The translations under genes and the position numbers were made by a program. From Escherichia coli (GTDB taxonomy: Bacteria > Pseudomonadota > Gammaproteobacteria > Enterobacterales > Enterobacteriaceae), in assembly GCF_051903065.1 (NCBI RefSeq), contig NZ_CP178438.1: a stretch of DNA of 64,000 nt; one strand, written 5' to 3'. Below the pieces are notes generated by a model. That model was given only the letters and a program-made list of their open reading frames with translations. It was not told where the DNA came from and made no database searches. Of this stretch, positions 14,440 to 16,342 are shown in pieces (position 1 is the stretch's first letter; each line of letters begins with the position of its first letter).

Positions 14440-16342
14440 ATGGCAGGGAAGTTTCGCTGCATTTTGCTGTTGATAGCAGGGCTGTTTGTATCATCTCTAA
14501 GTTATGCAGATAACACGGAGATCCCTTCTTATGAAGAAGGGATCTCGCTCTTTGATGTTGAAGCCACTCTGCAACCGGATGGGGTGCTCGACATCAAAGA
14601 GAACATTCATTTTCAGGCGCGAAATCAGCAGATTAAGCACGGATTTTATCGTGATTTACCACGACTATGGATGCAGCCTGATGGTGACGCGGCGCTGCTG
14701 AACTATCGCATTATTAGCGTCACCCGTGATGGTATTCCTGAACCCTGGCATCATGACTGGCATATCGGGTTAATGAGTATTGTCGTGGGCGATAAACAAC
14801 GTTTCTTGCCTCAAGGCGACTATCATTATCAAATTCATTATCAGGTTAAAAATGCTTTCCAGCGTGAGGGAGATTCAGATCTGTTAATCTGGAACGTGAC
14901 TGGTAACCACTGGCCGTTTGAAATCTATAAGACCCGATTTCCACTCAAGTTCCCTGATATCGCGGGTAATCCATTTAGCGAAATCGATCTCTTTACTGGA
15001 GAAGAGGGCGACACATATCGAAATGGCCGCATCCTTGAGGACGGAAGAATTGAATCCAGCGATCCGTTTTATCGTGAAGATTTCACGGTACTCTATACTC
15101 TACCGTTGGCCTCACTCGTTACTTAGCAATGCCCCGGCTCCGCAAACGACGAATATTTTCAGCCATCTTCTTTTACCCTCCACGTCATCGTTGTTAATTT
15201 GGTTTCCGTGTCTGTTCCTGGTTTGTGGATGGTTATATCTCTGGAAGCGCAGGCCGCAATTTACGCCGGTAGATGTGATTGAAACCGATGTCATTCCGCC
15301 AGATTACACGCCCGGCATGTTACGTCTCGATGCGAAGCTGGTTTACGACGATAAAGGTTTTTGTGCCGATATCGTAAATCTGATTGTGAAAGGAAAAATT
15401 CATCTGGAAGATCAGTCTGACAAGAACCAGCAAATCCTGATTCGTGTTAATGAAGGCGCGACCAGAAATAATGAGGTATTACTGCCCGCAGAGCAGTTAT
15501 TACTGGAAGCGTTATTTCGTAAAGGCGATAAGGTCGTTCTTACGGGGAGACGCAACAGAGTCTTACGCAGGGCATTTTTACGGATGCAGAAATTTTATCT
15601 GCCGCGTAAAAAGTCTTCGTTTTACCGGCCTGATACTTTTTTGCAATGGGGTGGACTGGCAATATTGGCGGTCATTCTTTACGGTAACCTGAGTCCTGTA
15701 GGCTGGGCAGGAATGAGTCTGGTGGGCGATATGTTTATTATGATCTGCTGGCTTCTTCCTTTTTTATTTTGTTCCCTTGAGCTTTTGTTTGCCCGCGATG
15801 ATGACAAGCCTTGCGTTAATCGTGTAATCATCACTTTGTTTTTACCGCTGATTTGTTCAGGCGTGGCCTTTTATTCTCTCTATATCAATGTCGGAGATGT
15901 ATTCTTTTACTGGTATATGCCAGCGGGTTATTTTAGCGCTGTTTTCCTGACCGGTTATCTCACTGGTATGGGGTATATTTTTCTGCCAAAGTTTACCCAA
16001 ACTGGGCAGCAACGTTATGCCCACGGTGAAGCTATCGTTAACTATCTTGCGCGTAAAGAGGCGGCAACACACAGTGGGCGGCGGCGGAAAGGGGAAACAC
16101 GGAAACTGGATTACGCGTTGCTAGGTTGGGCAGTCTCAGCAAACCTTGGAAGAGAATGGGTAGCACGTATCACCCCATCACTCACAGCGGCTGTTAGCGC
16201 CCCGGAAATTGCCCGTAGTGGCGTTTTGTTCTCATTACAGATGCACCTGAGTCTGGGGGCCAATACCAGTTTGTTGGGGCGAAGTTATTCCGGTGGTGGT
16301 GCTGGCGGCGGCGCGGGTGGCGGAGGCGGTGGTGGCTGGTAA
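14440..16342 (+). pseudogene. yciQ: DUF2207 membrane protein YciQ, reading frame broken (frame +1 stops at 15124-15126; continues in frame +2 to 16342)
   Basis: Two overlapping ORFs (14440..15126 and 14918..16342) in different frames together span about the expected ~630 codons; N-terminal signal peptide in the first, TM helices and Gly-rich C-terminal tail in the second. Confidence 0.6.

Follow-up and report, generated by a model that had tools for sequence, protein, structure and literature searches.

A clonally inherited 7-bp tandem duplication that very probably inactivates yciQ in Escherichia coli

Here we describe a broken yciQ gene in a window of 64,000 nucleotides of Escherichia coli DNA (contig NZ_CP178438.1). 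Comparison with other alleles makes it very probable that this is a genuine loss-of-function allele, created by a tandem duplication of seven base pairs and inherited clonally, in a gene that the species can do without. The gene here is a frameshift pseudogene of the ordinary, lineage-specific kind, and RefSeq already flags it. It should be annotated as one frameshifted yciQ pseudogene carrying a 7-bp tandem duplication, and neither as two genes nor as an assembly error. Beyond that annotation the allele has little importance, but the heptamer duplication is a convenient marker of the clone that carries it.

The affected segment is E. coli yciQ and matches 3,976 of 5,426 complete E. coli genomes. 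The gene order around it is trpE-trpL / rnm-yciO-yciQ / rluB / cobO-yciK / sohB. It is orthologous to K-12 yciQ, with the same position between yciO and rluB and 95.2% nucleotide identity to K-12-lineage strains. yciQ is the last gene listed in the E. coli yciV(rnm)-yciO-yciQ operon; the yciVOQ operon has been described with an internal promoter and with yciQ as a listed member (PMC3946193). Our promoter and terminator scan of positions 13700-16700 returned nothing informative on rluB expression.

Two open reading frames (ORFs) cover the gene in the window. The first runs from the ATG at 14440 to the TAG at 15124-15126, encodes 228 aa and has a signal-peptide-like N-terminus (MAGKFRCILLLIAGLFVSSLSYA). 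The second lies in the +1 frame, extends without a stop from 14918 to the TAA at 16340-16342 and has the C-terminal end GGGAGGGAGGGGGGGW (...GGGGGGGW). Jointly, the two pieces span all of K-12 YciQ (631 aa). The first-pass annotation had described just such a frame, broken after 228 codons and continued in the +1 frame, and the ORF list and the raw sequence bear it out. On the opposite strand within yciQ, the ORF list holds nothing notable, the longest ORF being 71 aa. In K-12 MG1655 the gene (b1268) is one intact 1896-nt ORF; the two-ORF structure, which would have counted as normal had the reference shown it too, is thus not found there. The K-12 product (NP_415784.1) is a DUF2207 inner-membrane protein encoded at the same locus as in the window (trpL / rnm / yciO / yciQ / rluB). 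The coordinates of the disrupted gene and its parts are collected in Table 1.

Table 1. Parts of the disrupted yciQ gene, in window coordinates.
Feature	Position	Strand	Basis or remark
yciQ pseudogene (DUF2207 family)	14440..16342	+	1903 nt, against 1896 nt in intact alleles
5' ORF (228 aa), made of 219 native residues with the signal peptide and the extracytoplasmic DUF2207 N-domain, followed by TLPLASLVT and TAG	14440..15126	+
Lesion: tandem TACTCTA copies, 15089-15095 and 15096-15102	15089..15102	+	Alignment to single-copy alleles
3' remainder in the +1 frame (native residues 220-631)	15103..16342	+	PF20990, hydropathy, start-codon scan
Premature stop, TAG	15124..15126	+	First stop in the shifted frame; intact alleles read tTAGc out of frame as L-S

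Where is the frame lost? We aligned the window with the intact alleles of XJ34, K-12, UTI89 and EcPF40, with the shortened allele of O157 and with the separately frameshifted allele of TUM13936. Only one difference from the intact alleles alters the frame, namely 7 nt at window 15089-15095 that face a gap, and this gap appears at the exact same site in the alignments to XJ34, K-12, UTI89, EcPF40, O157 and TUM13936. The window reads GG-TACTCTA-TACTCTA-CC here, whereas XJ34 and O157 read GG-TACTCTA-CC and K-12 reads GG-TCCTCTA-CC, with one copy of the heptamer. Alignment to K-12 yciQ, the check that had been suggested, thus placed the lesion at 15089-15102. The break had been put near 15118-15126 and ascribed to a single-base indel. 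The first out-of-frame stop does lie there, approximately 30 nt downstream of the duplication, but the lesion itself does not, and the single-base indel must be abandoned, as the alignments contain one 7-nt gap and no 1-nt gap relative to intact alleles.

Deleting one copy of TACTCTA in silico gives an uninterrupted 631-codon ORF. With the stop counted, the restored protein is identical to K-12 YciQ at 602 of 632 positions (approximately 95%) and to XJ34 YciQ at 619 of 632. Like K-12 YciQ, it has 631 aa, a signal peptide, the domains PF09972 and PF20990 and a Gly-rich tail, in agreement with the initial identification of the gene as yciQ, encoding a DUF2207 protein of about 630 aa. Judged from the sequences, this full-length match to K-12 is one of homology, not chance. 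The window ORF, in contrast, is broken after codon 219. As the inserted 7 nt cannot be divided into whole codons and a stop follows 9 codons on, the allele qualifies as a frameshift pseudogene.

We propose that the TACTCTA heptamer was duplicated in tandem at codons 217-219 in an ancestor of the clone, probably by replication slippage. The extra 7 nt move the reading frame by +1. A short inverted repeat, ACGGTA...TACCGT, brackets the duplication site. As DNA it is predicted to be only weakly stable (-3.5 kcal/mol, z = -1.8), and we make no claim that a hairpin caused the duplication.

What does the truncation remove? The 228-aa product first departs from the restored protein at residue 220, from which point it carries the nine out-of-frame residues. 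The DUF2207 N-domain (PF09972) lies entirely upstream of this point, at residues 35-176 of both the restored protein (83.6 bits against a gathering cut-off of 24.4) and the 228-aa fragment (86.6 bits, E = 2.9e-24). DUF2207_C (PF20990) is found at residues 284-535 of the restored protein (38.9 bits against a gathering cut-off of 33), a part that is encoded only in the shifted frame. Hydropathy predicts a signal peptide at residues 1-23, a first membrane helix at approximately 245-267 and a hydrophobic cluster at approximately 403-483; the segment between the helix and the cluster is hydrophilic and probably cytoplasmic. The truncation falls approximately 25 residues ahead of the first predicted transmembrane helix. 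Thus, a frameshift after residue 219 means that all membrane segments, DUF2207_C and the Gly-rich tail are lost. Ribosomes initiating at ATG 14440 would add 219 native and 9 aberrant residues before stopping at the TAG. At most, an unanchored, signal-peptide-bearing extracytoplasmic DUF2207 N-domain would be exported or degraded, and the 3' 1.2 kb, lacking a usable start, would go untranslated.

The allele recurs in a small set of genomes. E. coli 23CRST027 and 23CRST031, both from human faeces in Ecuador, carry the identical 1903-nt allele (100% identity), and ECNB21-M121, from meat in Zhejiang, China, carries the same allele with 1 SNP. The first 25 kb of the window is 100% identical to 23CRST027 (NZ_AP045789.1). 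The NCBI annotation pipeline PGAP labels yciQ a pseudogene, 'frameshifted', in both 23CRST027 and ECNB21-M121. Moreover, two Logan assemblies from unrelated runs (ERR12419554 and SRR27408802) share the duplication, with 1 SNP each relative to the window over 6.7 kb. In a collection of 15 billion proteins, the 228-aa product was found in its exact form, aberrant tail included, on 176 public contigs (NCBI, ENA and Logan). The lesion is thus reproduced in independent assemblies, and this recurrence is why we regard the duplication as a real mutation rather than an artefact.

How widely is the duplication distributed? An 80-nt junction query across it matched 3683 complete genomes, only 3 of which, all members of the clone (23CRST027, 23CRST031 and ECNB21-M121), gave a full-length match at 100% identity. 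The non-clone matches listed spanned 73 nt rather than 80, and nearly all other records had identities in the 80-95% range, which is what one copy of the heptamer would give. All five clone sequences that we inspected have two copies. Because the duplication is absent from the other approximately 3,680 matched complete genomes, we conclude that it arose in a single clonal event and is private to this clone, setting it apart from other yciQ lesions. We also considered a mutational hotspot with recurrent duplication, and rejected it because the junction query found the duplication only in three genomes of one clone. The next closest allele in a complete genome has 98.6% identity; it is that of TUM13936, which comes nearer to the window allele than any other outside the clone and is likewise a yciQ pseudogene. 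An exact look-up of the restored 631-aa protein in the 15 billion public sequences returned no match, so the un-duplicated progenitor of the allele is unsampled.

Could the two halves still work as separate genes? In a split functional gene, the N-terminal DUF2207 domain would be exported and the membrane C-terminal half translated from a start of its own, the two acting jointly or separately. The position of the break suits such a division, falling as it does after the extracytoplasmic domain and ahead of the first predicted membrane helix. Moreover, the gene caller used on the public contigs predicts a 355-aa ORF from GTG 15275 that contains PF20990, and weak starts exist at TTG 15050 (AGGA 5 nt upstream) and ATG 15023 (GAGG 12 nt upstream). 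However, when the downstream frame was scanned for ATG, GTG and TTG codons, no start had a Shine-Dalgarno-like match longer than 4 nt, in line with the first impression that the second half has no obvious start, and these two weak starts both fall within the translated 5' ORF. The starts that follow the stop (15191, 15275 and 15317) have no Shine-Dalgarno-like match, and those at 15275 and 15317, the latter being the first ATG after the stop, omit the first helix. With no convincing Shine-Dalgarno sequence in the full scan, we rejected a restart of the C-terminal half. In addition, an exact look-up of six candidate C-terminal products (474, 439, 430, 383 and 341 aa) found none of them in the public collection. 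The two-ORF arrangement at this site is found in no other E. coli genome, either in our alignments or among the junction-query matches. Within the clone, the SNPs in the 3' half comprise one non-synonymous change (P to L) and one synonymous change and give no sign of constraint, n = 2 being far too small a number to weigh. We consider a split functional gene most improbable. An equally low probability attaches to the ideas that YciQ is secreted by the clone as a soluble periplasmic fragment whose activity is altered or dominant, or that the heptamer is a rarely reverting on/off switch; if either were true, this would be a natural separation-of-function allele of a protein of unknown function.

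Expression regulated through the break, whether by programmed +1 ribosomal frameshifting or by a reversible, phase-variable heptamer switch, is less probable still. In principle, slippage could bring a two-copy tandem repeat back to one copy, and ribosomes that shift by +1 could read past a net +1 insertion. A phase-variable locus would be expected to have a multi-copy tract, but there are only two repeat copies here; the five clone sequences are invariant, every sampled member of the clone having two copies and other lineages one. The exact restored protein, which a reverted allele would encode, is the one absent from the public sequences. Programmed frameshifting fares no better, as inspection by eye found no slippery heptamer or homopolymer run at 15089-15126, and the two-frame form is conserved in no relative that we aligned: the alleles of K-12, XJ34, UTI89, EcPF40 and O157 have a single frame at the shift site, and the additional 7 nt are missing from approximately 3,680 other complete genomes.

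The last alternative, in which the organism has an intact gene and the additional bases are a mistake in the record, has next to no chance of being correct. Frameshifts confined to a single assembly are often errors, but a 7-bp tandem duplication in non-homopolymeric sequence is atypical of platform errors. This one is shared by three complete genomes of two countries and by Logan assemblies of independent runs, and the exact truncated protein is recorded on 176 contigs. Of the two readings that the first-pass annotation had offered, pseudogene or sequencing/assembly error, this decides for the true pseudogene.

Why would a disrupted allele persist? We suggest that it does so because yciQ is dispensable in E. 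coli. yciQ is a dispensable and variably present gene in this species; it was absent from 1,450 of the 5,426 complete genomes (27%), and in a pan-genome study it is classed with the variably present 'extended-core' genes (PMC12595684). Other natural lesions are likewise lineage-specific changes in yciQ, but the molecular event and its position differ from those of the window in each case. In NEBExpress, a lab strain derived from E. coli B, an IS1A element interrupts yciQ after approximately 127 codons (locus 301-2972). In TUM13936, 1 bp was lost independently at the equivalent of window 14848, and the heptamer duplication is absent. O157:H7 AUSMDU00002545 (locus 1185-2768) encodes a 527-aa YciQ (WP_001302160.1) that is annotated as intact; it has two in-frame deletions, one of 300 nt (equivalent to window 15276-15575) in the hydrophilic segment after the first helix and one of 12 nt in the Gly-rich tail. 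Several other genomes in our spread sample have an O157-like shortened yciQ. Among the 60 yciQ-bearing genomes of that sample, most retain the intact 1896-nt length. This finding indicates that yciQ is maintained in many lineages and that its loss is tolerated, not universal; loss may not be fully neutral. Strain engineering has made use of yciQ as a site for chromosomal integration (PMC11943725), and its dispensability across E. coli fits its use as a neutral site.

Overexpression of YciQ was reported to raise the yields of recombinant membrane proteins (reviewed in PMC3120638; PMC6116040). SMU.243 of Streptococcus mutans belongs to the same Pfam family (DUF2207) and was studied by deletion; the deletion strain is reported to be viable, with reduced tolerance of acid and oxidative stress and less biofilm (PMC10457818). 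SMU.243 is a distant homologue from a Gram-positive organism.

Several further features of the locus and its relatives were observed. ECNB21-M121 (NZ_CP083585.1) matches window positions 1-25000 in two pieces over 25,776 nt, which points to an additional insertion of approximately 776 nt somewhere in the interval, possibly an IS element. In E. coli O111:H8 7-58 72A (locus 1158-1257, corresponding to window 14413-16554), yciQ is absent and the gap between yciO and rluB is 100 nt. The joint contains approximately 65 nt that cannot be aligned to the window flanks and that include a small palindrome (AATGGCGC...GCGCCATT). This different sequence at the joint indicates a presence/absence polymorphism with replaced sequence rather than a simple clean deletion. 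The GGT/GGC-rich region that encodes the Gly-rich tail (window 16301-16312) varies in length in frame, being shorter by 6 nt in EcPF40 and by 12 nt in O157, consistent with slippage in a simple-sequence tract.

Finally, at 14518-14546 the window contains an inverted repeat with perfect 13-bp arms and a loop of 3 nt (GAGATCCCTTCTT-ATG-AAGAAGGGATCTC), within yciQ codons 27-36 or so. The predicted RNA hairpin has a free energy of -21.1 kcal/mol (z = -4.6 relative to shuffled sequences), and we estimate the chance expectation for a repeat of this kind at approximately 1e-3 per 64 kb. The repeat is identical in K-12, XJ34, TUM13936, UTI89 and EcPF40, and O157 has one uncompensated C-to-G change in it.
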